A DNA stretch of 63,946 nucleotides, filler included. It is 8 parts of 8 records of this genome, joined end to end, with 100 filler letters (N's around TTAATTAATTAA, not from the genome) between each part and the next. Parts side by side here need not be neighbours in the genome. Positions count along the whole stretch, not along the records: positions 24,198 to 30,212 come from SRR7504441_7492; 7 more parts are not named here. One strand, 5' to 3'. The position numbers and the translations under genes were made by a program. How positions within the stretch are numbered: position 1 is the first letter of the stretch; the number at the start of each line of letters is the position of its first letter. Positions 707 to 46,268 of the stretch are shown piece after piece. The notes under the pieces are model-generated. The model ran no database searches and had not been told where the DNA came from. It was given only the letters and a program-made list of their open reading frames with translations.

Positions 707-3497
707 CTAGTCAATGTCAGTGATCCTTGGTACGTCCTCTATTGACCGGAATACCTCACGGGCAGTTACATCATCTAACAACGCCTTCCATGGAGTGGAT
801 TGCATGAGACTGTTGGCATTACCGACGATAAGAAGCATCTCCTTGGGCCGTGTAAGTGCCACATTCATCCGCCTGATGTCATCAACAAACCCGATCCCGC
901 CTTGACGGTTGGCCCGCACACACGAGTAGATGACAACGTCCGCTTCTTGGCCCTGGAATGAGTCTACGGTCGCCACCCGGGCCTCGCCAGCCACCCCCCG
1001 CTTGGCAAACAGCGCTCGAATCAAATCCACCTGTCCCTGCCTAAGCCTGCCCGAGGCACCCCCTGACCTGCTGCCTATACGGCGACAGTACCGCGGTGGA
1101 TCCCTGATGTCCCAGCGCTGTCAGCTGTTCAAAGAGCTGCAGCACCGCTTCCGCCTCCGCCTGATTACCCAGCGAAGTGCCGCCACGCTGCTGCTTGCCC
1201 AGCGGCACATCAAAGAACCGGTACCTACCCAGCCACCGGCTCTCTGTTTGTAGCTCGCCCTCCTCCAGCTGAGCCTCATGCGCAGTCTCGCTGAGCCAGT
1301 CGAGAGCGGGCCGACTCTGCAGCTCAGCCGCGTCTCTCAGCATCCCCTGGTAAAAGTAACGGTTTGGGAACTGGCTAATCTCGGGATGCATTCTGTACTG
1401 CACATCCAGCACGCGCACAGGGTGCCCGGTCTGCTGCATCCGCTCGAACAGCGATCTGGCCAGTTTGTGCTCCATCGCACTCTTTGAGAGCACAGTTGGA
1501 GGCAGCTGCTGAGGATCGCCCACCAGCACCACGAGCCGGCAGCCGAGCTGGAGCGGCACCACTGTGGACAGCTCGGAGGCCTGCGCCGCTTCATCCACCA
1601 GCAGTGCTTCAAACGGCCGGCCCGTGTGCAATGTGGCCTTGGCAGCGCTGCTGAGCGTGGTGAAGACCAAGTCCGCCTGGTCCACGAACGATTGCTCTAG
1701 CTGCCTGCTGGCCTGATGTGCCGAAAGCTTCCCCGTCTGGTTCTGGAGCGCCAGCTCTAACCGATGCAGCTCCACTTGCAGCTTGCGCCTGGCCTCAAGT
1801 TGACCAATCGCCAGCCCAGCGTCTAGTTCCTGTCCAGCCATCCCGACAAGCTGGGCCTGCAGAGCATTGAGTCGGCTGCGGCATTGAGCGCGCTGCTCCG
1901 ATAATGCGCGCTGAGGCTGCTGCAGCAACCGCTCGGCCAGCGAGCTGCACTCGACTCGATGCCGCACCTGCTCATCCACCGCCTGCGCCCGTCCGATCCG
2001 TTTAATGTCAGGATTGAACCTCTTGCCTCGCCCGTCTACAAACCCGGCTCGGATCACCCTGCTGAGCAACTCGTCCACCGCAGCGTTGGACGGCGCACAG
2101 ACCAGCACCCGGGGCGGCGGCACGCGCTGGCTGTCTCGGGCCAGTAGATCTGGGCTGAGCTGAGCGACTAGCTTCTCGTGGTGCTGCGAGGCCAGCCCGA
2201 GCTGCAGCTGGTTGAGCACAGCGCAGACGGTGTGTGTCTTGCCTGTGCCCGGCGGGCCCTGCACCAGCACAATCGGCTCGGGACTCGGCCTGTCCCACTC
2301 TTGCCAGACCCGGAGCACCGCCGCCCGCTGCGCCCTGTTGAGCGGTGCCAGCAGCGTAGAGAAAACTATCGGGAGCAGAAGAAACTCCTCGAGCTCCGGC
2401 CGCTCGTAGCACGGCAGCCTGTTCTCAGCCGTCCGTTCGCTCCGGCCGTGGAGCAGGCTGGCCACCACCCGCTGGTCAGCCCCGGAGGCTGGGCCCGTGA
2501 GTGCGATCAGGGCCTCGTGCTCCCTGCTCTCCGTGACCACCGAGCAGCACCGGGCCAGCTGCAGCCTGCTCCCCCGCAGCGCGCAGAGCCGGCGGGCCTC
2601 ACTCATGGTGCCCACCACGCCCACAATGCACGTACCCCTGCTCGATGCCCCGTCGAGCACCAGTCCGTTTAAAGGCTGCTCAGCATTCTCTGCGGGAGCA
2701 CCCTGCGGCTTGCCGGAGGCCGCGAGCCCCTTGAGCTCCTTGGGGTTCATCCGGACGAGCTCGGCCGGTAGCACAGTCCTGTCTGCAAGGTAAGACCGGA
2801 GTTTCGGGCTGTTCTTCAGGTTGCTGATCAGCGAGACTCCCCGGCTCTTGTACTCCTTCAAGTCCGGAGCATACTGGTACAGCTCACGCTCAAGCGCCCG
2901 GGCCGCCCCCTCTGCCCCAAGCGTCTCCCCGAGCTGCCCTCGCATCCGCTCTTGCATCGCGCTCCCCACCCCCCCCGCGCTCCCCCTGGCCGGCTCCGGC
3001 CGAGCAGCCGCGCTCCAGCCGGAAACCTCCACGACGTCGCCGCGTTTGAACCCTGCGCCACGCCCGGCGCTGCGCAGTTCGAGCTCGCACCAGCGCCAAC
3101 TCTCGTCGAGCTCCTTGTAGCTGGCTGCCACCAGCACCAATCCCTCGCGCGGCCCTCGAGCCCCGGACTGCCGCACCGACTGGCAGGCCTCCTCTGCCCC
3201 CCGCTCAGCCGCCGTCGCCCGGGCCGCACCGAGCACGAGAGGTTCAAACACCGCCCGGTAGGTGCCAACCTGCCCCCTCGGCTCAACCCGCCGCGCACCA
3301 CGGCCGTCCACCGAGCTGAAGCTGTCGGGCACCGTCACCAGCGGCGCCGGGCCTCCGCTGTCACGCAGCCGCAGCAGCAGTCCCGGGCCAAACCCTTTGC
3401 CAGGGCCGGCCAGCTTCGGCAGCGGCTGGACCGGCCCGCGGGCGGACCGAGACCGGTTGGTTTTGGGCCGCTTCCGGGCCCGCTGCTCGTCGTTCAT
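707..3497 (-). CDS. Sen1/senataxin-like (UPF1-family SF1) helicase with an inserted TFIIS central-like domain
   Basis: Motifs QGPPGTGKT, VLVCAPSNAAVDEL, DEAAQ, VGDPQQLPPT, QYRMHPEI, TVDSFQGQEADVVI and RRMNVALTR. A 37-nt GT-AG intron (1031-1067) joins PYRQQ|VDLIR. A probable in-frame 42-nt intron (3270-3311) restores FSSVGTYRAVFEPL. Confidence 0.9.
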
Positions 3498-3600
3498 CGC
3501 TACGGCCGCCCAGAGGGCAGGTGTCTTGGACCCGATGGTGCCGTTACTCAGGTAACGGCTCCACCGTCAGGTCCACAAGGGGGTCCTCATCACCATCATC

Positions 3601-10372: not shown

Positions 10373-10472
10373 NNNNNNNNNNNNNNNNNNNNNNNNNNNN
10401 NNNNNNNNNNNNNNNNTTAATTAATTAANNNNNNNNNNNNNNNNNNNNNNNNNNNNNNNNNNNNNNNNNNNN
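10373..10472. other. Artificial contig linker (N44-TTAATTAATTAA-N44)
   Basis: Exactly 100 nt with a six-frame stop cassette, repeated identically 7 times in the window. Confidence 0.99.
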
Positions 10473-17031: not shown

Positions 17032-17131
17032 NNNNNNNNNNNNNNNNNNNNNNNNNNNNNNNNNNNNNNNNNNNNTTAATTAATTAANNNNNNNNNNNNN
17101 NNNNNNNNNNNNNNNNNNNNNNNNNNNNNNN
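17032..17131. other. Artificial contig linker
   Basis: N44-TTAATTAATTAA-N44. Confidence 0.99.
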
Positions 17132-21472: not shown

Positions 21473-23431
21473 CTAATCTTGAAGCGGCTCTTGAGGTGGC
21501 GCTTGAGGTGGCTCGTCCAGAGGGACTTGTGGCACGTCTTCGGCTGCAGCTGGTGCCTGTGCTGCTTGCGGCGCTGCAGGCGGCGCCTGTGCTGCTTGTG
21601 GCGTCTCTACGACTGGGGCTGGCTGTTGGCCGAACATGTGGCAGACAAGCTTGGTGGCCATCACGATCACTAGTAAAGTGGACACCAGAGTAATTGCAAA
21701 GTCAATCGCATAGTCTTCATGCTCCAGCTGGACCCAAACGTGCTGCAGATTGTCGAGGTAAAACCCATACACCGGCAGCGACCACAGCGCAAGCGTGGCT
21801 GGAACGTAAGCCCTCGACTGAGTGTCGGCGGCCATATCGTAGTAACGCTTTGCTAGGTGGAGGTCTTGCGGCAGGCCTTGACCGATCTGGTGCAGGTAGC
21901 CCATGTTGAACATAGCTTGCGGGTTCTTGAGCTCGGCCGCTGTCCGGTAGTGCGCGGCCGCCTTGGCGTGGTCCACTTCGCCGTGGTATCCAAAGTAATA
22001 GTAGTCGCCCAGCCGGAGCTCAGCATGCACGTTGGCCTGCTGGGCGGCCCGGCGATACCATCCCATTGCCCGCTGCTGCCGAGCCGACGTGTTCGTTTCG
22101 GGCGGGAGCGAATCAGCAAGCTCATCCAGGATATGCGCAGCGTTCGATTGGGCGATCTCGAACCCTAGCTCGCCCGCCAGCTCAAACATTGAGAGCGCAC
22201 GCATGGTGTTGCCCTTGTTGAGCTGGGAGGTGGCGTTGGCCAGGATGCTTGCCCAAGGCCCTCGCTCAGCAACCCCCTTGAGGATTTGCACAGCCACAGG
22301 ACACGAGCGCGGGGTGCCCAGTCCGTTGTGGTGCATCAGCCCCAGGTTGTACAGGGCCACCATGTGCCCCTGCTGCGCCGCCAGAGTGAAGAACTGAACC
22401 GCTTTCGTGTGGTCCCTCTTGACACCGAGTCCTCCGATTTGCATCGCCCCAAGGTTGAATTGGCCCTCCGGGTTGCCAGCCTCGGCCGCCTGGGTGAAAT
22501 AGGCGAGGGCGTTGGCGTAGTTTTGGCTGACAGCGATTCCGTACATGTAGAGGTAGCCAAGCCCGTTCTTTGCGGCAGCGTTTCCGAGCGCTGCGCCCTT
22601 CTTGAACCAAGTCAGCGCCGTGGCGTTGTCCTGTGCGATCCCCATGCCCTGCGCGTACATGTGCCCGAGATTGCTCATGGCCGCCCCGTCGCCGGCCTCC
22701 GCAGCCATCATGAAATACTTGTGCGCTTGAGTGTAGTCCCGTGCAATCCCGCGTGCCCCATAGTAGTACAGCTGGCCGAGTGTGGACTGCGCGTTTGGGT
22801 CTCCGCTGTTGGCCGCCTGCTCGTAGTACATCAGCACGTCTTCATTCTCTCCTATGGTCTGGCCGTTGCCATCAGCTGCATCGCTCAGCCTCTTCTTCTC
22901 GATGAATGGCGCCTGGCCATTCTGGGCAGAAGCCACCGCCTTGTCGGCCACCCTGGTGTAGTACGAGATGGCGTCGTGGCAGCTGTGCTGCACCCCTATC
23001 CCGTGCAGATGCCTGTACCCTAGCACCATCTCGGCCCGGGTGCTACTCGCCAGCGCCGCAAAGTGCGTGTGAAGCACCGCCGCCGCCTCGTCCGGCTGCT
23101 GGTCCGGCAGACCGCGCGAGTACATGACCCCGAGCAGCAGCTGGGCCTCCGGGTCCCCCTGGTCGGCAGCCATCTGCAAGTGGGGCAAGGCGGCCTCCGG
23201 GCTGGGCTGATCCTCGGCTTCGCCCAGCCAGATCATCTCGCCCAAGGTTGCCATCGCTGGCACGTGCCCGAGCTCGGCCGCGCTGCGCATCTTGTCCAAC
23301 CCGCTGACAGGGTCGGCCGGCTCACTCCCCGACCCGAGGCGCAGCGCGCAAGCCTGATGGTAGAGCTGCTCGGCGGCCGGCTCGGCGGCGAGGAGGCTCT
23401 GGACCAACCCGGCGGCCAGGAGGAGCCACAT
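21473..23431 (-). CDS. SEL1L: SEL1L/Hrd3 ERAD component (Sel1-repeat type I membrane protein), intronless
   Basis: Signal MWLLLAAGLVQSLLA. Many Sel1 repeats with family-specific segments MVLGYRHLHGIGVQHSCHDAISYY, KGVAERGPW, GFEIAQSNAAHIL and QDLHLAKRYYDMA. C-terminal TM. Confidence 0.93.
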   Translation of the reverse strand: MWLLLAAGLVQSLLAAEPAAEQLYHQACALRLGSGSEPADPVSGLDKMRSAAELGHVPAMATLGEMIWLGEAEDQPSPEAALPHLQMAADQGDPEAQLLLGVMYSRGLPDQQPDEAAAVLHTHFAALASSTRAEMVLGYRHLHGIGVQHSCHDAISYYTRVADKAVASAQNGQAPFIEKKRLSDAADGNGQTIGENEDVLMYYEQAANSGDPNAQSTLGQLYYYGARGIARDYTQAHKYFMMAAEAGDGAAMSNLGHMYAQGMGIAQDNATALTWFKKGAALGNAAAKNGLGYLYMYGIAVSQNYANALAYFTQAAEAGNPEGQFNLGAMQIGGLGVKRDHTKAVQFFTLAAQQGHMVALYNLGLMHHNGLGTPRSCPVAVQILKGVAERGPWASILANATSQLNKGNTMRALSMFELAGELGFEIAQSNAAHILDELADSLPPETNTSARQQRAMGWYRRAAQQANVHAELRLGDYYYFGYHGEVDHAKAAAHYRTAAELKNPQAMFNMGYLHQIGQGLPQDLHLAKRYYDMAADTQSRAYVPATLALWSLPVYGFYLDNLQHVWVQLEHEDYAIDFAITLVSTLLVIVMATKLVCHMFGQQPAPVVETPQAAQAPPAAPQAAQAPAAAEDVPQVPLDEPPQAPPQEPLQD

Positions 23432-23735
23432 CGTCGATGCTGCGGCCTCTTGCAAGGGCGGCAGACGAGCAAGGGCGCGAGCGCGTTGGGGGCAGCGACT
23501 GGACCACTCCTTCAGCTGTGGGCTTGGAGCGATGACGCGGTAGCACGACCACCAACGGAATTCAACGGAAAGATGGCCATCCATCACCTTGGGAGCCAGT
23601 GAGGAGAGCAAAGAGCAGTGGTGAGATTGTTGCGCGTGGTGCGTTGCGCCCCCGCCCTGCTGTTTGGCCCAGCGCCTGCCAGTGCCTGCGTAGACCAGGC
23701 CGTGCCGCGACGGTTAGTCGGCCCGGGGCAGGTCC

Positions 23736-24066
23736 ATGGGTAACAACAACAAGCCGCAGCGGGGAGACAAGGAGGCCCCGCGCGAGCAGGAGGAGCAAGC
23801 CCGGCCGAGCGCGACCACCGCCACACCCAAGGACCCGGAGCCAGCGCTCGTGCCCACAAAGTTTGTCTGGCGGTATGGCGGCAGCGAAGTGCTGCTCACG
23901 GGTGGGCCGGGCCCCCGGGCCGGGCGAGCCGGGGCTAGGGAGTTTCTCTAACTGGCGAGAGAGCGTGGTGCTCAAGCCGTCGGAAGAGGGGGACGAGAAG
24001 TGCACAACCCTCAGTCTGGCGCCGGGGGCGTACGAATATAAGTTCATCGTGGACAATCAGTGGCGG
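23736..24066 (+). CDS. PRKAB: AMPK/SNF1 beta subunit, N-terminal part (CBM48 glycogen-binding domain); truncated by contig end
   Basis: MGN start (myristoylation-like). VPTKFVWRYGGSEVLLTG|SFSNW...LAPGAYEYKFIVDNQWR via a 37-nt intron at 23902-23938. Confidence 0.8.
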
Positions 24067-24097
24067 TGGGCGGGGGGGGGGGGGGGGGCGGGGGGGG

Positions 24098-24197
24098 NNN
24101 NNNNNNNNNNNNNNNNNNNNNNNNNNNNNNNNNNNNNNNNNTTAATTAATTAANNNNNNNNNNNNNNNNNNNNNNNNNNNNNNNNNNNNNNNNNNNN
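24098..24197. other. Artificial contig linker
   Basis: N44-TTAATTAATTAA-N44. Confidence 0.99.
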
Positions 24198-24299
24198 CAT
24201 TGCAACTGGTATAGGGTAAGTATTGTTTGTCAATCAGTTCCTCGAGATTGAGGTGATCATGATTTCAAGACTAGTGATTGACCACTAAAATAGGCGAGT

Positions 24300-27200
24300 C
24301 TAGTTGTGCGCTTGCTTTCGACTTCTGGCAGAGCGTCGTACATTCGGAGTTTTGATCCTTGAGACTGCGCCCGAAGTTCTAGGTGTTTTTGATTTGTGTT
24401 TGCCAGCTGAACTGTCGACCGACGGCTGCTCAACTACTGGACATGTGTCAACCTCCATTGTCAAAGTGGTGTCAATCACGTTTGAGATGTCTCCACCGCC
24501 AAGGCTCTTCCTGAGGACATTATCGCCACTAAGGCTCTTCCTCAATTTGCGCGGGCTCTCAGCGATGCACTCTTGGCTCTCCTGGCTGGACCGGAGCTCT
24601 GGTTGAGCGTCAGCGGGCTTGCATTCTCGCATTGGGCGCACCCGCTTCGCACTGGCTCTTGGGCTTTGTGCAACTGTCTTGTTCTCGTCTGGTCTGTTCT
24701 CTTTGGCTGATTCCGGCTTGGTTTGCTTGCGCCCCGCTTTGGACGGCGTACTGCCTGGTCGCCTGGCGCTCACCTTTGTGGACTTGCCGACCTTCTTGAG
24801 GTCCAGCGTCAATCGGTCAGTGTCCTCTGTCTCGAGTGCGTCTTTGTAGGCGAGCCCGTCGTACAGGAAGCTCCTCTGGTGCTCAAGCTCCCAGTTCTCT
24901 ATCTCTTGGCGCAGGAGCACCAGAAGCCTAGGATACCGCTTGGTGAACTGCTTTCGGAACTTTTCTTCTTCAAGGAAATTAAGCGAACTGCCCTTGAAAC
25001 GCCCCGCACTGTTCTCTGCGGCCTCTTCAAAAGTGCGTGCCTTGTTGAGCAGTGCTTCGCGCTCGTTGATGAGCTTGAGGAGAGACTCAAGAGACTTCTT
25101 AAAGGTTTCCATCTCAGTAACTTGAGCCTCCAGGAGCTCACTCCTCTTGAGGATGCAGTCGCACTCATCCACAGTCATGAAGAACATTTCTAGCGCGTCC
25201 ATTGTGCTGTGAGTCTCCTTGTACAGTTGGCTAAGCGCCTCACGCACCGGCTTCTCGCGCTCAACCAGCACGTCCCTCAGCAACTGGAGCTTGGTCTCAC
25301 AAGCCTGCGAGTCGCAGATTCGCAGTGAGCTGTGAGCCGAGATGAAGCTCTCGGCCCCGCTCTCAATTTCAAGCTCCGCAAGCTGATTGCTCAGCGCGCC
25401 TTCGCTCATTGCCTCGGATGCATTTTCGCCAATCCCAAACAGCTTCTGCACTGCTGACCAGGTGGCTGTGAGCCGAGCATGCAGCTTGGCCACCTCCTCC
25501 TCTCTGGCGGCTCGGATCATCGCCACGTCAGCCAGCTTGGTTTCGAGAGTCTGGACGGCTGCGTCCCCCAACCCAAGCACTTGGGCATCGTGCGTGGCGA
25601 TTGCGTTGTCGATTGGGTCTCCGCATGTTCTGTTATGGCCGACAGACTCCCAATCCTGTCTGATCCGAGTCATGAGCTCCCGGATCTGCGCGCTCCTCTC
25701 AGCCACCCTCTGGTTCAGCTGCTCAGCCTCCTGCTCCAGCTGCTCCAGCATGGCTTCGGTCATCCGGCTCTCCTGCGCCAATCGCTGGTCGGACAGCTGC
25801 TCGGCCTCGTCGGTTAGCTCGAGCTTTGTGAGTGCCGCCACTTGCAGCTCGACCAGCTGCTCGGCGCGGTTGGTCCGCTCTGTCAGCATGCCCTTGAGCC
25901 GCTCAGTCAGCTCGCCGAGCTGCCTCTGCATTCCGAGCAGCCCAGACTCTCGTGCTGACGCGAGCGAGGATTCGACGTCTCCGAGCTGATCAGCCACCGC
26001 CTGGGCTTCAGCCTCGAGCTCCGCACACAGCGGCTCCAGCTCGTGGCATTGCTGCTCGCGCGCCTGCTTGAGTTCTTCGATCACTGGCATGGCCAGCTTT
26101 TGGACAGCGGCACAGTCCACAAGCTGCTGCGCTCTAGAAAGCCCGAGACGCACCCAGATCGCCTGCAGCTCGCCGAGCGCGCTGTGCATCTCCGGGCACA
26201 CGTCGCTCTCAGGCAGAGCCAGATGTCCCGATGGCCCGTCTTCCACTGCAGCTTCAGGTGGCCCCTGCATGAGCACAGCCGGCGGTTCAGTCCGAGCCGC
26301 AGCATCTGCCCGGCCAAGATCAGCCAGCTCCAGCACCGGGCGGGACCGTCGGCTCTGGATGCACTGGTGGCCAGCTGCTGCGCGAGCTCGGTCCTGCGGC
26401 CAGTCAGATCAGCGCCTGGTCGAGCGTGCCTCTGCTGCTCTGCACTCTCGTACTGCTCCCTCAGCCCCGCGAGCGAGCCCTCCAGCTCTCGCATCCGGCC
26501 ACTCGCGTCCTGCGCCGCCTGCGCCCGGATCATCGGGCTGGCTCGGGGCCAGCTAGCCTGGACTGCCTCGTCCCGCTCGGCCCGGAGCTTGGCCACAAAC
26601 TCGGACGAGTCGGTCCAGCACGGCTTGAGCTCGGCCTGAAGCTCGGCCACCCGGCTCACCAGCTGGCTGTTCTCCCGTTTGATCCTGGCCAGCAGACCCT
26701 CGTTCGGGTCGTGATTGATCTTGGGCTTGTTCCGGATGTTCCGGGCCCTGCCATGGGTCTGTGAGCAGCCGGTGTTGCCCCAGCGAGCACCTGCACGCAT
26801 ACTCGAGTGTCGAGCGGGTCTCGGCTCGGTCAGCAGGCTCGGCCGACACGCAGGCTATGAGCACTGTGCGTGAGTTGCCCCCGAGCGAGTCCTTCAGCCC
26901 GGTCAGTCCCCCGGCTTGGGGTGGTCACCTGTAGGATCCTGGTGAGCTTCGAGTCCCGGTACGGCACGTGCGGCGCTCCCTCGACCAGCGCCAGGATCAC
27001 CTAGCGACCGGTTGCCCAGCCGGGGCCGCCCAAAGCACCTTGCCAATCACGAGCAGCCCAGAGTTGATGGTGATGGCCTCGCCCTTGGCTGAGCCGGTCG
27101 CCCCGGATCGCTCGAGCCTTTCGGAGCCGGCCAGGTCCACGCAGTGGAACTTTGAGACCTTGAACTCGTCGCTGTCGAGCGAGCGCTGCTCCATGGTGAT

Positions 27201-27955
27201 GGTCATGATCGCGTGCGACCGGCTCGAGTGCAGGTTCATCGCAGTGGAGGCGGTGGTCCGCTCGGCCATCCCGCGCTCTAGGCAGCCGTGCAGCCCGGCC
27301 GCATCGTGGATGAAAGTCTCGCGCGCCCCTTGCAGCTGGAGCTGTCCAGTGGCCACCTCCTCCACCACCTTGACCTCCTTCCCGCTGCTGTCGAGCAAGT
27401 CGCTGCCCCGAGCTCGCCAGCCCCACCGGCCGGCTCACCGGATCTTCTCGTTGTGGATCTCGACGAACGACACTCTGAGCACGTACTCTGACCGATCGCT
27501 GGTGGCCGCGATCCGAGCGAAGATGTCGTTGATGGCTAGAGGGATCATACCGCCATTGGCCGCCCACTGGCCGCCGGTGCCCATGGTGTACGTCTTGCCG
27601 GACCCAGTCTGGCCGTACGCCAGCACCGTGGCGTTGTACCCTTCGAACCATGACTCGACCAGCGGCTCGACGCACTGCTCGTACAGCACAACTTGGCCGA
27701 TCTCGGGCTCGAACGCTTGGTCGAAGGTGCCCTGCCACTCGCGGGGGCACTTGAGGCACGGCTCCAGCACAACTTGGGCCTTGTCGTTCTCCGCCGGCCG
27801 GCAGTGGAGCCCCGCGTTCTTCCTGCCGTCCTGCGGCGGGCGAACCTGCCGCTCGGAGTCACCCGGCCGGGCAGAGCCACCGGTCCCACCCGGACAGCCA
27901 CTTGGATGTTGTCGCAGTCGCCGGGCCGTTTCGACTGACCCAGATTGTCCGCCAT
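24300..27955 (-). CDS. Kinesin (kinesin-4-like) motor fused to a MAP65/Ase1/PRC1 domain
   Basis: Motor motifs [70 protein letters not shown] and YACRARNIRNKP (introns include 27846-27889, 27403-27438, 26748-26790). A 41-nt GT-AG intron (26306-26346) leads into ORF 24300..26336, which has LGELQAIWVRLG and GRFKG...FLEEEKFRK...PRL...L..EIENWE.EHQRSFLYDG plus a basic S/K/R/P tail. Confidence 0.85.
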
Positions 27956-28021: not shown

Positions 28022-28711
28022 ATGGATCGGCTGCCCGCGGACGCGCTGCAGGGGGTGCTCGGTCGGCTATTGCCGCGGGAGCTGATCAGAGCGGCCGGGG
28101 TCAGCCTGCACTGGCGCCGGCTCAGTCGCGCCACCGCTGATCGGCTGCTGGGCCGGCTGCCGGTGCTGGCGCCGGAGCTGTATCCTGTGGGGCCTTTCGA
28201 CGGGCGGAGCGCCACGGTCCGGCTGCAGCTCTACCGGGAGGCCGAGGCCCGGGCGGCCAGAGCGGCCTCGAACGGGCCCGGGATCGGATGGTGGACAGAG
28301 GAGCTACGCGGGTGCGTGCAGGGGCTCCAGGGGCTGCCGATCCGGGTGTGGGGCCCGATCGGTGTGGAGATCGAGCTGCTGGGCGACTCGTTCTGCCGGG
28401 CGATGGCGCTCCAAATGGTGGGCAAGCGGATGCTCCAGGGGTTCGTGGTCCGGGCCGGGCGGCAGCTCGAGCAGCTGGTGCAGCTCCGGGCAAAGTTCCC
28501 GCTGTATCTAGTGCCCGAACCGGACGATCAGGAGGACTTCGCCAGCCAACGGCCGCTGCTCAAGCCGGATCGCGGCTGCTGCTTCGCCGACTCGGTGTTT
28601 GGGAGCACCGCTCGCGACGTGATGTATGCTCTCAACTCGCACCGGAGTCTGTATCAAAAGGTCATCACAGTGCCGAATGCCGATACAGTCGCGCTAAGCT
28701 TGAACGTCTGA
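28022..28711 (+). CDS. F-box protein with a C-terminal segment resembling an SMC5/6 hinge
   Basis: MDRLPADALQGVLGRLLPRELIRAAGVSLHWRRL is an F-box pattern; downstream VWGPIGVEIEL...MVGKRMLQGFVV. Confidence 0.7.
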   Translation: MDRLPADALQGVLGRLLPRELIRAAGVSLHWRRLSRATADRLLGRLPVLAPELYPVGPFDGRSATVRLQLYREAEARAARAASNGPGIGWWTEELRGCVQGLQGLPIRVWGPIGVEIELLGDSFCRAMALQMVGKRMLQGFVVRAGRQLEQLVQLRAKFPLYLVPEPDDQEDFASQRPLLKPDRGCCFADSVFGSTARDVMYALNSHRSLYQKVITVPNADTVALSLNV

Positions 28712-28894
28712 CACATCCATAACGCATCAAATCTCCAGGCGTGGCGCCAGTTGGAGCGGCGCGTCACGCACAAAGTCACACAAACAGCATGAATGTACGG
28801 AAAAACATAAAACATACGTACGTGCACGTAGTAATATTGAGTGACAACCGCACGTACGTAGTGTATCTAGTACTGTATGCGCATAGACGCCGTA

Positions 28895-29756
28895 TCACGC
28901 ATTGTAATGACCTAGTATAATTTCATAGCGTGCTAATGTTACTCGTGAATTAGATGTTAAAACATTGAAGCGGCCTCGGACCAACTCCGTTGCAAGCCCC
29001 ACTGCACAGCTCAGTTGATCGGCTGCTTCACCACGGTTGTGGTCAAAGGGCCGTACTCCACCGTGCCATTCTGCCCGAGGCTCGCCCGGCGGCAGCGGGC
29101 TGTTCACCACGAACTTGGCGCCTCTGGCCCACTCGTGATCTGGCGGGCCGGGCACTGGGGCGATCGGGTAGGCCGGGACTTCGTACATGCACATCCCGTA
29201 GAACGCTGGGTTGCCACACCGGAGCGGCGCTGCCGGCCGGCTAGTGTCCCGGTTGGCCTGCGGCTCGGGTGGGCCGGGCCGGTGGCTGGGACGTACGTGG
29301 GCGCCGTGCGCTCTGAAGCCATCGTAGTAGGCCCGGTGGTCGACCACCTGAGACCGGTCGGCCCGAGCGGCGGGAGTTTGGCACCTGGGAGAACCCGGTC
29401 GAGCGGTTGGTCGGGGCGTCGTAGTGGGTGCCGGCCACCCGATCCACGTCCATCCCGCGGTATGGGTACCCGAACCCGAACTGGTTGTCCGGGGTGTACC
29501 GCGGGTGCGACGGCCCGTGGTACGGGTACCCGTGGAACGCGTGCGGCACCGGGGTGGCGTTGGGGTCCGGGTTGCCTGCGGGGCCATCGGCCTGCCCAGC
29601 AGCGAGCGTTCACCGGGGCCGCGGTACAGGGCGTGCTTCAATGGCTCAGCGCGGGCATCGAAGACGGCGGCATGGATGGTGGCCTCCTGGCCGGGGCTGA
29701 GCCTAGGCCCCGGCTCGGCCGCTTGCCTTGGGGCCAGGGGAAGGCAGCAGCGACAT
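28895..29756 (-). CDS. Small P/G/Y/H-rich protein of unknown function
   Basis: MSLLPSPGPK|EATIHAAVFD via GC-AG intron 29687-29726; further short introns link HAFHGYPYHGPSHPRY and HEWARGAKF segments. Confidence 0.55.
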
Positions 29757-30212: not shown

Positions 30213-30312
30213 NNNNNNNNNNNNNNNNNNNNNNNNNNNNNNNNNNNNNNNNNNNNTTAATTAATTAANNNNNNNNNNNNNNNNNNNNNNNNNNNNNNNN
30301 NNNNNNNNNNNN
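30213..30312. other. Artificial contig linker
   Basis: N44-TTAATTAATTAA-N44. Confidence 0.99.
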
Positions 30313-36400: not shown

Positions 36401-39400
36401 TTGGGTCTAATCTATGGTCGAAACCAGAACGAGCTGGGTGATGATGAGGCTAACGTATTTAGTCAGTTGCCCCGAAGTATTGATGTGAGGCTGCAAGAGG
36501 TGGTCTGCTCGCTGATTGATCCAGGCTTGGACAGTACTATGCAGCGGTACTGCCTTGGACACCCAAACCCTGCCTCGCTGGTGTGGCGGGTGAGCTTTTC
36601 GCCATGCATTGAGGTGCCATAGCCCTGACCTGGATTTTCCTAGACCATTGTCTCCGCCTAGAAATTAGTTAGTGCCAAGTCGACTGCACTTTTGGGGGGT
36701 AAGCACGTAATCCCGGTTTACCATGGGTGGGGCGTTCGGCCTGGGTGTGAAATAATTTGCATATGCAATCTATTGCCAAGCGTGTCCCTGAGTGTGCTGA
36801 CAAGTGCCGGCCAACTATCGTAGACTGTTGTACAGTGTCGACAGCTGTCGTCGAGTGCTGAATTGTATGTGCACAGAAACCCGGAGTGTGGAGCTGCCAC
36901 AACTCGATCCAAATGATCCAGTGTATGGCCACAATCGACGCTGAGCTGCTGCGGAGTCTCAAAACGCTCTGGTACGAGATCACTCAGTACAGCATGGCCA
37001 ATGCCCGGCCGGATTCGGTGACGCCAAACCTGGATCTCACATTCCACCTCAGCTGCTGGCAATCAGGAGTGGTCCTTCAGCGACGGTTCGAGAGCGAGTT
37101 GCTGCCAATGGCCCAGTTCCGCTCTGATGAGGCAGTGATCCAAGCTTTCTATGCAGGAGACCGGAATTCTGCAGCTGTAGAGGTGGTACTGGGGCTCGAA
37201 GTGTCAGTGTTTGACACCGACAATGGGTTGTATTTGCCCGTGCTCCATCAGTGCACAATGGAGCTTAATTTGTCCCAGAAGCTTTCCGAGCGGGCTATCA
37301 AACTGCATTTGCTATCTTCACCGGTGCTTGTGACTCTCCAGGTGCCACTGCTGCGACATCTGAATAAATCGTGGGTGCCTGATGTGGTGGAGGACATGAA
37401 GAACATGCGGATGTACACTGGTATGATGTCGCCTCACGAGAAAGAGCTCGCAGAGGATTACACTGTACGCAATTTGCTACCTGTGGACCTCGAGATCCAA
37501 GTGGGTGATGCAGAGCTGGTGGCGGTGGCTACAGAAGGTCGTGCATCTATCCCAGCCGGATCGAAGATCCGGGTACGGCTATCTGGACTGGACTTGTCGG
37601 GGATGGAGTCGTGGAGCCACGAGATTTCACCGGAAGATAGCTGCTTTGTGAGTGAGGACATGACTGCTTGCAACACGTTTAGGCTTGACTGCACTGGGGC
37701 CTCGATGTTAATGGCTTGGTCGGCAGCACGAAACGGTATGGAGCTGTTGATATGGACTCAGTACGCCATTAGAAACCTGTCGTTCCTGGAGCTGGCAGTA
37801 CACTGGCCTGGATTTGGCCAGGGCAAGAGCCTTCCAATGGACGGACTCACTCTGGTTTGTGTGGACACCGAAGAGGATAGCGAGCAGGACCAGCAGCTGA
37901 GTGTGTCCCTGTTACAGGATGTGGCGTCGCCTGACTTGGCAACCGAGCTCCCCAAAGGTGCTTTGAGATATTCAGCGTTACAGGCCTGCTCTTCGCTTGT
38001 GCTCCAGGGCAGTACATGCTGCTTTGGGCTGAGTGCAACTGTGCATAAGGGGGACGGCGAGTGTTGGAGGACAACATTCATTACCTTTGATCCAAAGTAC
38101 ACACTCATTAACGCCAGTGATAAGGCGCTTCACATACTTTATGAAGGGCAGAGCGAGCTTCCAGGGGAAGATCAGATCCATGTCACAGTGCAGCCGGGCC
38201 AGAGCGAGCCACTATGGCTCCCAGCTGATGTGGTTGCTCCGCGTGCCAGGGCACGGCTATCAGACGAGTACGAATGGTCAAACACGTTTTTGTTGGACAG
38301 CGTAGGAGAGCACTATCTGCGGAGCCGGAAGGTGGGCAGCCTTCTTCCAGTGGTGCTTGGAGTCCAAGTGCTAGTGGCTGGCGGGCTCAAGGCCACATTT
38401 GAGGCGGAGGGTTTGTTGACACCATTCCAGATCCGGAACAAGTCGCAATACACACTGCGATACTGCCAGAACGGGTGCGCCCAGGGCGAGGAGATGGACA
38501 TCCTACCGCCCCGAACCACAGTGCCATACACCTGGGAAAATCCAGAGCAGCACCCAGAGCTGCTGGTCATGATAGACGCAGTGCATGGATGCAAGCTGAC
38601 TCAGGCACTGGTCACTCTGGATTCAATCCAAGGTCCTGTGGAGAGCCACGACGGCCGGGTTACCTCAGCTGCAGTCGAGCAGCCCTTCCTCTTTGTCGTC
38701 CTGGAGGATAGCCTAAAAATCGAGCATGTAATCCACCTGTCGGTTCACTCGCGTGCGGATGGTTGCAATGTGCTGGTCTGTTGGGAGCTCACGCCCTCAC
38801 CAGACACCCAGATGGTTGTGGTTCGAGAAGTTGAGGAGCTATGGGAGAACCAGCGCAGAGTATCACCATGGGACGACTACTCACACAAGAAGCTGATGCC
38901 GAGCGACCGAGGCCAGTACTCGGATTGCGATGGCAAACCGTCCTCGTTCGAGCAGCTGGATGCATCAATCGAAGATGGGTGGACCTGGGAGGACAGCTCA
39001 TGGACCGCTAGTGAAGAATATCAGTATGCCTTCAACTGGCATGATCATCACAAGAAGTGGCATACTAGCTCATCACTAAGGATGTTTGTCCGCCGCCGGC
39101 TGTGGAGGCGGGCGCGGGTGCAGGCATTGCTCCCCCCTTCAGTGTTCGAGCAAGTTGAAGATTTCAGACCGCCTGATCCAGAGCTGTGGTCTGGGTCCGT
39201 CAGAGTGGGTACTGAGGGGTGGGCACTCCCAATATTGACGAACGGGGCACTTGGGGAAGCCGAGGAGGGCGACGAAGAGCAAGAGACTATACAAATGCAG
39301 TGCTTTTCGTCGCCTCTATCTGAATTGGACATGGTGGAGGCATCTGAAGGGTCTTTTGAGTTTTCATTGCGGATTGTATTAGTCTGCTTCTCATTGGTCA

Positions 39401-41830
39401 GCGTAACTGGTGATCCTCTCGCGACTCTGTCACTTGGTGGAGTCGACTCTTACTTCTCTCGTATCAAGAATACCAACAAGGCCAAAGATGAGGCATGGAA
39501 TGTGAATGTGACTATCGACACAGTTCAGATAGATGACGACCACGATAATGACGCCAGATTTCCGATTGTACTATCTCTAGAACATTTCACAGGCAAGCCG
39601 TTGCTCCAGGTGGTCTGTTCTGGCCGACTGCATTCTGGGGCGATGGCAGAGCTCCCATTCGTCTCAATGCTGATCCAACCACTTCAAGTCAATCTCGATG
39701 AGTGCCTTGCCATGCAGCTGCTCGAATTATGGAACTTCCTTGCACTTGAAGTCCCTAGTTCCCCAAGCGGTGTTCTCCGATGTCGCGTCGGCCGGATGCT
39801 GCTTCAACCCGTGCGGATTATTCTGAGCTTCCGCCGAGCTCCCAGAGCCGACTTCGTCTCTAAGGCCTCCATGCGCGCCAGCTTTGGGTACGCGTTTGCC
39901 AACGTGAGTGAGAGCCCGCTCAATTTTGACGCCTTGCACATGGAGGATGTGACGCTCACCAGTCCCGTGCTGGTGCAGCTTGTCACAGACCACTACTCAG
40001 GGCTACTTAGGCAGCAGCTGGCTCGTTTGTTTGGGGCCTCAGATGTACTCGGCAACCCCATAGGCGTAGCACAGTCATTCAAGCGTGGGGTCACCTCGTT
40101 TATGTATGAGCCGTCGCACGGCGTTTCTCACAATAGGACAGTAGTGGCCCTCCAGCGGGCGGGTGCAGTGGGTGGTGGCGTGCTTAAAGGCACAGTAGTC
40201 GGTTCGATGGGATTTGCTAACGCAATTACTGCTACACTAAGTAAGAGTTTTGCTGTGCTCTCATTTGACGACAAATTTGTGGAGACTCAGAGCCGCGAGC
40301 AGAGGTCCCACTACGGCGCCGTAAAGAGTCTCCGCAGGCCAGTGGGAGCGGCATTTGGCTATGGGCTGAAGTCGCTGGGCAAAGGAGTATTAGAAGGCCT
40401 GGCTGGAATCGTAGTTCAGCCTGTGCAGGGAGCCCAGAAGGAAGGAATCAAAGGGTTTGCCAAGGGCGTTGGTAAGGGCATCGCAGGAGTAGTGGCCAAG
40501 CCTGTTTCAGGGGCAATTGATGTGGCTGCCGGCTCAATATGTGAGGTTGGTGGACTTGTTGAGCGGATCGGCGCCAAGCAAGCCCCTGTATTTCGAGGTT
40601 GCACCATCAGGAAGATCGAGGCCTCTCAGCGCTCCGAGCATAGGAAGACCCTACTGCGACCGATTGCTGAGCTTATCTTGGCCTACGACCGCGACGATCT
40701 CAACAAGCTACCTGATGGGTTTGTGCCAGTCAAGGTCAGAGGCCAGTCGGAGCCGGCACTGCTGCGATCCTGGCAGCGGGACGGCGAGGCGCTCACAATC
40801 CATGCTCGATATGGCACGCCGCATGACAGCACTTGCTACAGTGTCATCACGCTTCTTCAGTGCGACAAGCACGATGAGTTGTTAGACGACGGGCATGGCT
40901 TTTCCATCCTATCCAAGACAATCAATGGAAGGAAGGCTGTCTTTCGCGGGCCAGGCAGGTCGCGCTGGATGCTGGCAGTGAGATCGCCGATGCGGGGCAC
41001 GATCATGGACGAGAATATCATTGTGCACCTCGAGTGCTGCACAAAGCGCGACCACTCGGCAGTAGCACCCACAACAAGCTCGATCTGCACAGCTGGCCCG
41101 CTCTGCTCAAATGAGCACGACGACATGATCAGGCAGCAGTTGTACCTGGCCTGCTGCACTCGGCGGCCATTGTTCGATCCACTGTTTGGCGACAGCGCTG
41201 TGGCTGCACTCGAGCAGCGTCTTAGTGCAAGTTACATCAGCCTGCCCATTACATCGCTATGTGTGATCCACGGAGATAGCGAAGCTCCACCCGAGGGGTT
41301 CACGCCCATCTGGCGGACTTGGGGAGCTGGAGATGCCCGCCTGGGTTGGGGCAGCACCCCAATGTATATATGCGCGCATCGGGGCGGCGGGGAGCCACCA
41401 ATCACGGAGGTGGTGGTCGGTTGCACGCTCTCAGAATCGCTTGAAGGCTACGAGATGATTGAGCGCACCCCTAGTGGGCTATCTGCAGATCTCGATGGCC
41501 GTTCCCTGTTTGTGGGAGTCTGTCGGGACCCAGCACACGGGGCGCCTATCACTGATGTGCAGGTGTCAGATTGGGCTCAATGGAAAGCTAACGGGGGCTG
41601 GAAACAGGTGGTCCGGACTTGTGGATATGTCGCGTTTGGGTCGAAATATAGGTGTGCAGATGGTTAGCCTATTGCTGAGCTGTTGTTGCAGTATGAATGA
41701 CGAGATGTGCAACTTAGATTATGAAATAGTGCGAGTGACGCCCTCTGGCCAATATAGCGCAAAAGCAAACGGGAAAGACAGCAAGTTCATTTGCTTCTTA
41801 CGAATGCCTAGCGCTCACCTAGACCGGTAA
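30458..41830 (+). CDS. VPS13: VPS13-family bridge-like lipid transfer protein with a DysF insert and C-terminal MABP-like repeats
   Basis: Chorein N-terminus MFERFLLSFLERCLGRYV...VSVWKGTLELENL...GSIGVLQLHVPWKSL. VAB repeat PFQIRNKSQYTLRYCQ...PYTWENP. C-terminal ASDVLGNPIG and GIVVQPVQGAQKEGIKGFAKGVGKGIAGVVAKPVSG. Many short introns; the last exon ends at 41830. Confidence 0.9.
34623..34765. repeat. Dispersed repeat copy A inside the long VPS13 intron 34607-34767
   Basis: The first 51 nt match 36638-36688 at 38/51 positions without gaps. The end GTGTCGACAACTGTCGT matches the copy B end; rich in TGTCGA. Confidence 0.65.
36638..36851. repeat. Dispersed repeat copy B inside the long VPS13 intron 36590-36876
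   Basis: Shares both ends with 34623-34765 (TCCTAGAC...AGTCGACTGCA; GTGTCGACAGCTGTCGT). Confidence 0.65.
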
Positions 41831-42052: not shown

Positions 42053-42152
42053 NNNNNNNNNNNNNNNNNNNNNNNNNNNNNNNNNNNNNNNNNNNNTTAA
42101 TTAATTAANNNNNNNNNNNNNNNNNNNNNNNNNNNNNNNNNNNNNNNNNNNN
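42053..42152. other. Artificial contig linker
   Basis: N44-TTAATTAATTAA-N44. Confidence 0.99.
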
Positions 42153-42653: not shown

Positions 42654-44520
42654 CTACTGCTGTGAGCAGCCACCGGCGAGCTCACTATCCATCTCAAACT
42701 CGTGTGCCGCCTCCTCACAGCCTTTGGGCTTGTCACCCTTCTTGTTGCGCACCTCTGGGTCCGCCCCGGCGTGCTGGCAGAGCCCAACAAAAATCTTGGT
42801 GTTGTGAAATACCTGCATCGGCCAGCTCAGCCGTTGCTCCGGCAAGCACAACCTGTCCGGATTCCGGGTCCTCCCAGTGAGTGTAGTGGAGCGGTGTGTT
42901 GCCGTTGTCGTCCCGAAGGTTGACACCAGCCCCAGCCTGCTGCCGTGTCTATGCCCGGCCCAGCCCCGGCTGGCACCTGCACCAGTAGCCGGCTTATCTT
43001 GGCTGCGCCGTACTTGGCTGCAAGCATCAGCGGCGTGGTCCCGTCCTGCCCTGCACTCGGAACAGCAGCAAGAGCGCAGCACCTTGTCTCGCGCGTCAAC
43101 CACGCTCTGCTTGGTGCCAGCATTGGCGATCCGAAGCATCTCTAGAACCTGCACCGGCTCAACGGCATGTCTACTCACCAGTCGCCACCTTGCCAGCAAC
43201 ATCAGTCATTTTGGCTTTGGCACACAGATGCAGCACATTAGAGCCATCAGGATCTCTCACACGCAGCACGTGTGTTGTGTCCGGCAGCACCGTGCAGGTC
43301 ACATCGGCCTGCTGCATTGCGGCCACTGCAGTGCCCGCGTCCACAGTAGCCCGGGCTCGCAGCAGCGCCGAGCAACTCTGCTGATGGCCTGGCCCGCCGG
43401 ATCAGCCACACCCAAGCAGCCCACGCACCCCGCCGCGTTGCCAACAACAGCGCACTCTCGCCGCCTGCACCCCCAGGGCTCGGGCTTGGACCCGACCAGT
43501 GGCACCTGCATCCAGCTGGTTGACCGCAGCCCCGTGCTCGAGCAACAGAGGGACAGCCTCCCAGAACTTCTTAGTAATGCAAGTGTGCAGTGCAAAGTCG
43601 CCGGTCGCTGGATCCTTGAGCTGCGCGTTGGCCTTGGCATTCAGCACCAGCTGGAGCACCGTCTCGGATTTGCCTTGCAGCGTCTCAAACACGATCCCCG
43701 TAGGCAGCTGAGCCCTGTTGCCCAGCAGGTACCGGACACACTGGTCGTGACCCTTGGACGCTGCCAACTGGAGCGCCGTCCGGCCGACCTGCCGCTAGAG
43801 TGGGCCCGGCAGCCGGTCGAGGCCGCACCAGGTCCCTCCGGAGGCATTCTCCGGTGACTAGCACGTCAACACCCTCGCTCACCTCGCCCCCAGCCACCAG
43901 CCGCTGCAGCAGCTCCAGGTCGCCCCGCTTGGCCCCGTCCAGCAGCTGCAGCCGCGGGTCCCGAGCCAGCTCCTCCCGCTGCCGCTGGGCGATCGGAGTC
44001 TTCGGGCTCTTCGGACTGGCCACCGCCCGCCGAGGAGCCCGCGCGGCGCTGTAGCCGATCCCAGCCGACCCGCGGGCAGCTCGCCGCTCGGTCCGGCCAG
44101 GCCCGCGCACCTCGATCTCGAGGCACTCAAACATCTCAGCCGCGTCGCTGCCGGCACACCGGTCAGCGAGTCGGCCGGCGGGGCGGCGTACGCGAACATG
44201 CCGAACGGCTGCCGGTCGTCCAGCCTGTTGCTCTCCCAACTGAGGTATTCCTGCGGCCCAAGCTGGAACAGCGCCCGAGCCTCGCCCATGGTCATGCCGG
44301 CCGGCAGCTTGCCGGAGGCTTTGACCCGTCCATCGTACCAGAACACGGTCTGCACGCCAGGCTGGTCCGACACCGGCGGCTTCTGCATCCGCCGGGCCGG
44401 CACCCTCTGCTGGCCGGGCTTGGGCCGGTTCTGCTGGGCCCAGCGGACATAGTCGTCGTTCATCCCGTCCGACTCGTCCGACTCCGACTCCGACTCCACC
44501 ACACGAGGCCGACGTCTCAT
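42654..44520 (-). CDS. Ankyrin-repeat protein
   Basis: LLDGAKRGDLELLQRLV, GRTALQLAASKGHDQCVRYLL, GDFALHTCI...LLEHGAAVNQ, DGTTPLMLAAKYG and AGADPEVRNKKG, spread over several short-intron exons. Confidence 0.8.
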
Positions 44521-44642
44521 CTTGCACCGGCGCTCGAGTGACCGCGCCAACAAAAACGGCAGCAGGACGGTGGCCGTTGGAGCTCGACGGCGGTGGCCGG
44601 GGAGCATCGTCCACCGTCCTCTACCAGCCTCGCCGTTGGACA

Positions 44643-46268
44643 ATGCGGGTGCTCCTTCTCTGTGCCACCGCAGCAGCGGCCACCGCCTTAGCCGCCCCGC
44701 CCGCGCCGCACTACGATTACACCCTCGACTGCGACGCCTTCTCGCCGCACGTCAAGGGTGATACCTGCAACCAGTACGGCGACCCCGACGCCTGGGCGCG
44801 CATCGTCCACCGTCCTCTCCCTGACTTCTACCAGGACCAAAAGTTCGGCGTCTTCATCCACTGGGGCGTCTACTCGGTCCCCAGCTACGGCAGCGAGTGG
44901 TTCTGGCACAACTACCAGTGCTCCGGCGACGGGGCCGGCTCTGTCAAGCAGTTCGCCGACAAGAATTTCCCGGGAATCGGCTCCGACTACCCCGAGTACG
45001 CCAAGCTGTTCCGCGCAGAGCTCTACGACGCGACCGCGTGGGTTGCCGCCATCAAGGGCGCCGGTGCACAATATGTCCTGCCAGTCGCTAAGCACCACGA
45101 TGGGTTTTGCATGTGGGACGCCAGGGAGACGTCCCCGCAGTGGAACGCCGTCGAGGTGGGGCCGCAGCGGGACGTGCTCACCGAGCTCTACAACGCCTCG
45201 GTGAAAGCCGGCCTGGACTTTGGGATCTACTACAGCCAGGGCGAGTGGTTTGACAGCAATTTCGTCGCCGACGCCAAGTCGGGCTTCCGGAACAAAACAT
45301 TCATCGAGGCCAAGGTTAAGCCGCAGCGGCTGGACCTGGTGCATCGTTTCCCCAAGGCAATGATCTGGCACACTGACGGCGGCTGGATGGCGCCCGACGC
45401 ATACTGGGACAACCTTGACTGGCTCACGTACTTGGTCAACGACTCGCCCCTGGCCGCCCGGGTGGTGTCGTGCAACTCGATGGGTGTCGGCTGCTGCTCG
45501 AGCGACGCCAACGCCAAGTCGGGGGTTAGCCCGGCCCAGCAGGACAAGTGCTGGGAGATCGGGGACGCCCCCAGCGGCGGCGACCGGACCACGGCGGGCT
45601 CGGTGACGGGCCACTTTTACACCAACCAGATGACGATCCAGCGGGGCAGCTGGAGTTGGGACCGCAAGGAGGACAAGATGCAAGACTTTTTTAGCGCGAG
45701 CGAGCTGATCTGGACGCTGGTGAGCACGACGGCCTGGAATGGCACGCTGATCATGAACATCGGACCGGAGGCGGACGGGCGCATCCCTCCGATCTTTCTC
45801 GACCGCTTCCAGCGCATCGGCGAGTGGCTCGCCGTCAATGGGGAGGCCATCTACGGTTCGCGCGTGTGGGAGAGTGCGCTACCCGACGGGTCGGAGGGGG
45901 CGACTGGCCCGGGGTTCCAAAACGCGTCACACGCGACGTATTACACAAGAGGGACGGCCAACAGCGGGTGCCAGTTCCGGGACGTGCCAATGGGGTGCGG
46001 GGACGACAGCAACAAGGAGGGGGCGGTGTACGCGATTTTCTTGGAATACCCGACGAATGCTGCCGACGCTGGCGGCAAGGTGGTGCTGCATCTGGACATT
46101 CCGGTGGGCGTCGCCGGACAGACCACGGTGGCGCTGCTCGGGCACGACGGGGCCGTCTCGTGGCGGGCGGGTCCGGGGGGCAATGGCGTCGACGTGCTAC
46201 TGCCGGCCGCACCGCCGCCCGGGTCAGGCCACGCGTGGACGCTCCGGTTCGTGGGGCTCGGAAATTAG
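44643..46268 (+). CDS. Secreted GH29 alpha-L-fucosidase-like enzyme, intronless
   Basis: Signal MRVLLLCATAAAATALA; motifs KFGVFIHWGVYSVP, EWFW, AGAQYVLPVAKHHDGFCMW, GIYYS, LIMNIGPEADGRIP and IGEWLAVNGEAIYGSR. Confidence 0.92.
   Translation: MRVLLLCATAAAATALAAPPAPHYDYTLDCDAFSPHVKGDTCNQYGDPDAWARIVHRPLPDFYQDQKFGVFIHWGVYSVPSYGSEWFWHNYQCSGDGAGSVKQFADKNFPGIGSDYPEYAKLFRAELYDATAWVAAIKGAGAQYVLPVAKHHDGFCMWDARETSPQWNAVEVGPQRDVLTELYNASVKAGLDFGIYYSQGEWFDSNFVADAKSGFRNKTFIEAKVKPQRLDLVHRFPKAMIWHTDGGWMAPDAYWDNLDWLTYLVNDSPLAARVVSCNSMGVGCCSSDANAKSGVSPAQQDKCWEIGDAPSGGDRTTAGSVTGHFYTNQMTIQRGSWSWDRKEDKMQDFFSASELIWTLVSTTAWNGTLIMNIGPEADGRIPPIFLDRFQRIGEWLAVNGEAIYGSRVWESALPDGSEGATGPGFQNASHATYYTRGTANSGCQFRDVPMGCGDDSNKEGAVYAIFLEYPTNAADAGGKVVLHLDIPVGVAGQTTVALLGHDGAVSWRAGPGGNGVDVLLPAAPPPGSGHAWTLRFVGLGN

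Follow-up and report, generated by a model that had tools for sequence, protein, structure and literature searches.

A kinesin motor and a MAP65/PRC1-type microtubule crosslinker that appear to be encoded by a single gene in a marine microbial eukaryote

Antiparallel microtubule overlaps are classically marked by PRC1 together with kinesin-4, a pair that also determines how long these overlaps become in anaphase, and kinesin-5 motors (Eg5/Klp61F) are bipolar tetramers that crosslink microtubules through motors at both ends. According to one source (PMC10620760), proteins of the MAP65/PRC1 family form antiparallel homodimers with their N-termini together at the centre; in animals, KIF4A and CENP-E attach non-covalently to PRC1 residues 1-168 by way of their C-terminal tails, and the CDK1 sites of PRC1 are T470 and T481. 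Here we analyze a locus on the minus strand of a DNA window of 63,946 nucleotides (nt; the window is the whole stretch that was analysed, and all positions count along it), in which a kinesin motor and a MAP65/Ase1/PRC1 crosslinker appear to be encoded by a single gene of a marine microbial eukaryote.

The predicted product combines the same two families as the PRC1-KIF4A (Xklp1) pair and the plant MAP65-kinesin-4 pair, with the C-terminal side of the motor meeting the dimerisation/rod end of the crosslinker, and it shares with PRC1-KIF4A the spectrin-like domain, a basic tail with S/T-P sites and an action expected at antiparallel overlaps. It differs in that it would be one polypeptide with a fixed 1:1 stoichiometry, so that binding could not be turned on by recruiting a partner at anaphase, and in that its stalk has only ~108 residues, with neither a KIF4 tail nor PF25764 detected. 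The likeness to kinesin-5 is that a single gene product would crosslink antiparallel microtubules and move along them, whereas crosslinking would here be achieved via a passive MAP65 dimer, the motors being central.

Gene model and encoded domains

The gene sits within the contig at 24198-30212 and is modelled with eight exons (Table 1). Its product, of about 1125 residues with intron 6 removed, starts with a kinesin motor, which is followed by a short coiled coil, then by ~40 residues of flexible linker and finally by a complete MAP65/Ase1/PRC1 crosslinker. The spliced models have a length divisible by 3 and one stop, at the end, and removal of a predicted 41-nt intron at the junction fuses the kinesin and MAP65 frames with no stop between them. 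The same architecture, lengths and linker are displayed by a protein of another organism, P0002, which comprises 1119 residues, derives from a EukProt Trinity transcript and harbors PF00225 (330.8 bits) and PF03999 in one open frame. A search of 1.84 billion representative proteins returned no close relative other than P0002. The spliced model is identical to it at 618 of 1055 aligned positions (59%), and the alignment runs unbroken through stalk, junction and linker. P0002 differs in that its ends carry adapter residues and its tail is incomplete: we take residues 1-23 and ~1075-1119 to be translated sequencing adapter (..DVYKRQ.., ..VSYTHL..), so the protein itself probably starts at the Met preceding ..DGSHRSS.., with a truncated tail. 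A one-gene kinesin-MAP65 fusion had already been proposed in a first-pass annotation of this DNA; with adjacent parts on the same strand, no spacer, an intact motor and the single frame of P0002 in its favour, we consider it very probable that kinesin and MAP65 are encoded as one gene.

Concerning the motor, the four successive exons 2-5 align to PF00225 one after another along the profile, at 36-138, 140-263, 266-289 and 290-321 of its 327 positions (E between 1e-30 and 1.8e-06, all above or near the cut-off). GQTGSGKT, SSRSH and DLAGSE, which we take to be the P-loop, switch I and switch II, respectively, are intact in the translation. The full N-terminal kinesin motor that had been described is recovered, both by the Pfam check over exons 2-5 and by its nucleotide-binding and switch motifs. 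The stalk yields a weak coiled-coil-type Pfam match only.

The MAP65 part is complete, as had also been claimed. PF03999 on the big exon (24303-26303, minus strand) scores 72.5 bits against a cut-off of 26.9 in the Pfam check and is covered over nearly its full profile (2-463 of 477, residues 41-533), and comparison by hhalign with 15 stand-alone MAP65 proteins, hand-picked from the database matches, gives a probability of 100 and E 2.7e-48 over residues 34-507. Residues 424-498 match the PRC1 chains 5kmg_P and 3nrx_A in phmmer (E 1.2e-04 and 1.4e-04). The structural model of the module has a mean predicted local distance difference test score (pLDDT) of 57.4, with 68-88 in the binding-core part, and only its PRC1 matches were used, cautiously. 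Full PRC1 chains occupy Foldseek ranks 1-4 (best E 3.7e-04, for this low-confidence model), and the binding core matches 3nry, 5kmg and 3nrx with a TM-score by target of 0.59-0.62 and a root mean square deviation of 3.2-4.1 A. The linker (model residues 1-35) falls below a pLDDT of 50.

The same holds for the last 166 residues (502-667), in agreement with the basic disordered tail with SP/TP sites of the first-pass annotation; T519-P520, K522, S547-P548-R549, KRVR and P584 are invariant in 6/6 aligned sequences, and so are the motifs TP.K, SPR and SPRK. The C-terminus of the product matches the ends of the related proteins P0001, P0005 and P0006. Conserved tail blocks, ..ESPRKLRKSL..RKSLGG.DI.NV.. 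and the end ..SRIKTP..RRS.., are found in the window protein, P0001, P0005, P0006 and P0174, and a KEN triplet occurs in the window protein, P0001, P0006 and P0174 and not in P0002 or P0005. These blocks and the triplet might serve in degradation or localisation.

All seven introns are 36-44 nt long, one of them is GC-AG, and CTGAC, CTGAT or CTCAC is placed 10-17 nt before the AG. Twenty sequencing runs share words with the gene, each having 5-11% of the gene's sampled words. Four runs were mapped, X1, X3 and X4 being RNA and X2 being of the kind 'DNA?' (a guess). An RNA contig of X4 (record 22) lacks the 39 nt from 26517 to 26555, the joint being uncertain by 5 nt, and a shift of this joint by 2 nt gives the GC-AG pair at 26557-26519. 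This contig, spliced at intron 6, is the one direct sign of the gene's spliced RNA. The intron also corresponds to an exact 13-residue gap when the model is aligned to P0002, and both observations lead to the length of about 1125 residues given above; contig 9 of X2 retains the 39 nt. Hence, of the earlier gene model the joining of the frames stands, this GC-AG intron having been missed, and the length obtained with intron 6 retained (3417 nt, 1138 residues) is revised. The protein motifs that accompanied that model were all found in their places on the minus strand.

Further exact-match contigs from RNA libraries, which can contain DNA, cover 24419-24792 and 25396-25622 in the MAP65 part (X1), again the MAP65 part (X4) and 27180-27438 in the motor (X3). 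The X3 contig, from an oligo-dT RNA library, retains intron 2 and would come from pre-mRNA or carried-over DNA. A genomic open reading frame (ORF) of a relative, P0295, reads through an intron at the intron-5 position. Two short read pieces, at 27580-27622 and 26928-26980, continue into unlike sequence and were taken as conserved kinesin motifs from other organisms. A 36-nt GC-AG candidate at 26429-26394, in frame and with a CTGAT..CAG end, makes the P0002 alignment neither better nor worse, lies outside the mapped reads and was omitted from the model.

Table 1. Positions of the fusion gene, its parts and introns, and of long ORFs on the other contigs of the window.
Feature	Position	Strand	Remarks
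Fusion gene, whole coding region	24300..27955	-	ATG 27955-27953, stop TAG 24302-24300; eight exons
Exons 1-4	27955-27890, 27845-27439, 27402-27039, 27000-26929	-	
Exons 5-8	26891-26791, 26747-26558, 26518-26347, 26305-24300	-	
Kinesin motor domain and neck	26712..27906	-	exons 1-5 and start of exon 6; neck ..ARNIRNKPKINHDPNEG..
Coiled-coil stalk after neck	26347..26711	-	~108 residues without intron 6; aligns with P0002 residues ~395-490
Acidic, proline-rich linker, stalk to MAP65	26184..26305	-	~40 residues; aligns with P0002 linker: ..EP..MQ.., one Cys
MAP65/Ase1/PRC1 module	24705..26183	-	N-terminal dimerisation helices (..LGELQAIWVRLG..), rod, spectrin-like microtubule-binding domain
Microtubule-binding core (spectrin fold)	24810..25034	-	RFKG..LEEEKFRK..YPRL..W..FLYDG
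Basic disordered tail	24303..24800	-	conserved S/T-P sites (TP.K, SPR, ESPRK); end ..SRIKTP..RRS..
Intron 1	27846..27889	-	44 nt, GT-AG; restores ..VAVRVRP..; agrees with P0002
Intron 2	27403..27438	-	36 nt, GT-AG; in-frame TGA after donor; P0002 uninterrupted there: ..NEKIRDLLDS..
Intron 3	27001..27038	-	38 nt, GT-AG; Kinesin profile continuous 263 to 266
Intron 4	26892..26928	-	37 nt, GT-AG; CTGAC near 3' end
Intron 5	26748..26790	-	43 nt, GT-AG; splits ..EYACR|ARNIRNK..
Intron 6	26519..26557	-	39 nt, GC-AG, in frame; RNA contig and P0002 gap
Junction intron, predicted	26306..26346	-	41 nt, GT-AG; CTGAT 17 nt before AG; shifts kinesin frame into MAP65 frame
Sel1-repeat protein (other contig)	21473-23713	-	
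AAA_11/AAA_12 helicase with TFIIS_M (other contig)	1041-3566	-	
VPS13 piece (other contig)	36862-41667	+	
Alpha-L-fucosidase (other contig)	44325-46268	+	
ABCA-type transporter (other contig)	50022-54161	-	
Dihydrouridine synthase (other contig)	55097-56869	+	

Family of the motor

That the motor is kinesin-4-like is supported by its best matches. Among solved structures the closest relative of the P0002 motor is KIF4 (260.5 bits), followed by kinesin-5 (247.5), KIF7 (246.5) and kinesin-2 (245.3). The search scored 7985 matches at E up to 1e-30, and among the best 120, which were listed, a hand count gives 26 family-specific names, all of them KIF4, KIN-4A, KIF21, Klp31E or '4/21/27', and 0 from other families. 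We also built a motor tree of 42 rows, composed of 35 hand-picked sequences out of 119 matches, two rows from the search for junction fragments (one a kinesin-3), P0002, three oomycete proteins and the window protein. Containing a kinesin-4 set with a single kinesin-3 outgroup, this tree is not a family test; it places the window protein and P0002 as sisters inside the set, with weak backbone support and on a long branch (1.27).

The alternative that survives best is a real fusion whose motor belongs to another, or an orphan, kinesin family, the parallel with KIF4-PRC1 then being analogy only. It gains from the small margin of the KIF4 score over kinesin-5 and kinesin-2 and from the long branch shared with P0002, and also from the non-motor features typical of kinesin-4: the stalk is much shorter than that of KIF4, and the precomputed Pfam list of P0002 has no PF25764, an entry that a hand count finds in 105 of the 119 other matches listed. 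A motor from outside kinesin-4 is nevertheless unlikely in our view, with 26 of 26 family-specific names in the kinesin-4 group, KIF4 as the best solved relative and a clade that, with the single kinesin-3 sequence as outgroup, falls inside the kinesin-4 set. The term 'kinesin-4-like' used in the first-pass annotation therefore holds as far as the best matches go, and does not extend to the long stalk and PF25764, which were not detected.

The join between motor and crosslinker

If left unspliced, the kinesin frame continues for 88 codons to a stop at 26081, a stretch rich in Arg, Cys and Trp that covers the conserved N-terminal part of MAP65 in a different frame. The GC content across 26000-26600 is 0.64-0.71, and no AT-rich spacer is seen at the join, as had been noted before; the GC content falls to 0.46 at the 3' end of the gene (24200-24499) and between the two neighbouring ORFs (28700-28999). 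The previously reported 41-nt GT-AG intron at the junction is present and joins the two frames; its length is within the 36-44 nt range of the other six introns, and its CTGAT..CAG 3' end is like that of the gene's other introns.

Several observations weigh against a single gene. Between 26470 and 26200 there are 41 GT/GC..AG pairs (25-80 nt apart) that join the frames free of stops, 8 of them with a GT donor. A frame-joining intron of 41 nt alone is therefore weak evidence, since 41 pairs would do likewise; ours is the best-looking of these candidates, and the exact junction is predicted. Its donor reads GTCCCG, vs GTG.. in five other GT donors. The segment 25842-26389, which includes the junction, lies outside all read contigs of runs X1-X4. 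A Met at 26268, conserved in P0002, is located just upstream of the MAP65 module; a MAP65-only product starting there is possible as an additional isoform, and less likely as the sole form. P0001, a 655-residue MAP65-only protein of another relative, is in the database; its sequence begins within the module, its source is a metagenome contig, and it may just be an ORF call. P0002, for its part, comes from de novo transcript assembly and, as we read it, has adapter sequence at either end.

Three approaches gave no information on the join. Third-position GC fails to separate the kinesin and MAP65 frames, and is uninformative because the MAP65 frame, rich in Glu, Ala, Gln and Leu, has G or C at first positions. 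Among the 107 short proteins listed in a search for junction-spanning fragments none links the motor end to MAP65; a more distant fragment, P0294, contains the motor end and coil. A metagenome scan for related loci returned one 1024-nt tail fragment (L001), without the junction.

The locus could instead contain two separate, tightly packed or overlapping genes, with a short kinesin ending at, or polyadenylated near, 26081, and a MAP65 starting at ATG 26268 or 26189; the seeming fusion would then stem from the choice of an intron, P0002 being a read-through or a mis-joined Trinity contig. The junction uncovered by reads, the 41 chance frame-joining pairs, the conserved Met ahead of the module and the existence of P0001 would fit such an arrangement, and so would a very compact genome, in which 66 nt separate the divergent start codons at 27955 and 28022. 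However, the 88-codon kinesin tail would then be read out of frame across the conserved N-terminal part of MAP65, and neither a GC drop nor a spacer separates the parts. Furthermore, P0002 is open through stalk, linker and MAP65, its linker aligning with that of the window protein, and oomycete genomes of three genera independently annotate kinesin plus MAP65 as one protein (see below). Two genes are hence improbable, clearly more so than a misjudged motor family. An assembly chimera near 26.3 kb, joining kinesin and MAP65 genes of different loci or organisms, would suit a fragmented, metagenome-like assembly of small contigs and the fact that no mapped DNA contig spans 25842-26389, but is extremely improbable given that P0002, from another data set, has the same order and a homologous linker, that neither composition nor intron style changes at the join, and that both parts are at a similar distance from P0002 (77% identity over 326 motor columns, 55% in the MAP65 part).

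Oomycete counterparts, proposed action and neighbouring sequence

The search with the MAP65 part gave 193 matches at E up to 1e-3; the best 150 were listed, and 14 of these, either long or with the match far from the N-terminus, were scanned with Pfam. In four of them an N-terminal kinesin is present and Pfam calls no MAP65, even with E relaxed to 10. Three are oomycete proteins combining a kinesin with a cryptic MAP65, namely P0078 from Pythium oligandrum (1574 residues), P0091 from Lagenidium giganteum (1676 residues) and P0117 from Phytophthora ramorum (1696 residues), one cluster member of the last being named 'Chromosome-associated kinesin KIF4B'; the fourth, P0081, is an unattributed fragment of 1030 residues with an N-terminal kinesin and a MAP65 module. 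The aligned tails of the four match the stand-alone MAP65 alignment over 433 columns (hhalign probability 99.0, E 7e-18), and in P0117 the module spans residues ~1035-1628 and includes everything from the N-terminal helices through the spectrin domain. The oomycete kinesins resemble the window protein in having an N-terminal motor and then a full MAP65 module, with ..LLEEE.FRK..YP.L..W.. common to both. They differ in a stalk of their own, of ~570 residues, between motor and MAP65, in motors that contain large insertions and share just 33% identity with P0002, and in modules that Pfam does not call.

These proteins are database precedents in a second lineage, hidden from domain-architecture surveys, and the caution of the first-pass annotation in this respect was well placed, as P0002 and the three oomycete kinesins share the combination. 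Since Pfam misses their MAP65 modules, oomycete annotation lacks the MAP65 call. An Achlya hypogyna protein of 1336 residues, P0244, has a kinesin motor immediately preceded by a LUC7 N-terminal domain (E 5.8e-75); it probably represents two neighbouring genes merged by annotation, and predicted oomycete fusions consequently need transcript support.

The kinesin-MAP65 fusion is new in that no description of it was found, and its sequences (P0002, the oomycete proteins) are already public. Full-text literature searches, whose scope excluded a supplementary list of 105 kinesin architectures (PMC2867816), returned no account of such a fusion; the main text of that study (Wickstead et al. 2010) has 0 mentions of MAP65, Ase1 or PRC1. 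The available portion of a Phytophthora microtubule preprint states that MAP65 is conserved in oomycetes and says nothing further.

Tentatively, and with more doubt than confidence, we suggest that kinesin-4::MAP65 proteins constitute an undescribed class of single-chain motor-crosslinkers that arose at least twice, with a short stalk in marine protists and a long one in oomycetes, and that in these lineages replaces the two-protein PRC1-KIF4 system in setting spindle-overlap length. In a quick tree the fused kinesins of the marine clade and of the oomycetes are not sisters, but an approximately unbiased test does not reject a single clade of both fused groups (p = 0.30). If such a class exists, it would supply evidence from nature for an ancient and functionally obligatory partnership of PRC1 with kinesin-4. 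The natural fusion, found in marine protists and in cryptic form in oomycetes, would in any case be Rosetta-stone evidence that this partnership is old and widespread beyond animals and plants.

By analogy with its two families, the product may be a single-chain motile antiparallel crosslinker. The MAP65 N-terminal helices would form a two-fold antiparallel homodimer, as in PRC1, whose two spectrin-like domains and basic tails could bind two antiparallel microtubules, and the two motor heads would be tethered via neck and coil at the centre of the crosslinker, which is the docking end for KIF4A and CENP-E. With the C-terminal end of the kinesin covalently joined there, we propose that the product acts as a permanent 1:1 PRC1-KIF4 complex. 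It might walk plus-endward in antiparallel overlaps and gather at the overlap plus ends, where it could slide, brake or cap microtubules and so limit overlap length in the anaphase spindle. The TP.K motif, ~20 residues past the binding domain and at the place of the PRC1 CDK1 sites, would offer possible cell-cycle control in lieu of regulated partner binding.

Dimerisation was also addressed by structure prediction. Two copies of P0002 residues 385-720 reach a pairing score of 0.56 vs 0.02 for the best control, a model confidence only, which may reflect memory as the PRC1 dimer is solved; the mark of the tool is reached by 21/30 proteins solved as pairs and by 0/23 solved as single chains. Three runs share at least 45% of the contacts, the partner pLDDT is 66, and the predicted interface (518-573 and 603-608) coincides with the MAP65 N-terminal helices, a pass that may reflect no more than likeness. 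The locus would represent an elegant and useful natural fusion of two classic partners without introducing a new principle. It would provide a ready one-protein system for in vitro overlap-length control at 1:1 stoichiometry, and it prompts one to ask what governs timing if recruitment of the motor is not open to regulation.

Regarding the surroundings, a divergent neighbour at 28022-28711 (plus strand) starts 66 nt from the kinesin ATG, as befits a very compact genome, and its first residues weakly resemble an F-box (E 1e-04, 22.4 bits vs a cut-off of 24.3). The window contains seven N44-TTAATTAATTAA-N44 linkers (10373-10472, 17032-17131, 24098-24197, 30213-30312, 42053-42152, 56984-57083 and 60617-60716) and is therefore made of eight unrelated small contigs, neighbourhood across a linker being meaningless. 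A long C run (minus-strand reading) at 24060-24097, where the neighbouring contig ends at the linker, is probably an assembly-end artefact. The long ORFs of the other contigs (10 ORFs examined with Pfam) encode ordinary eukaryotic genes, six of which are given in Table 1.

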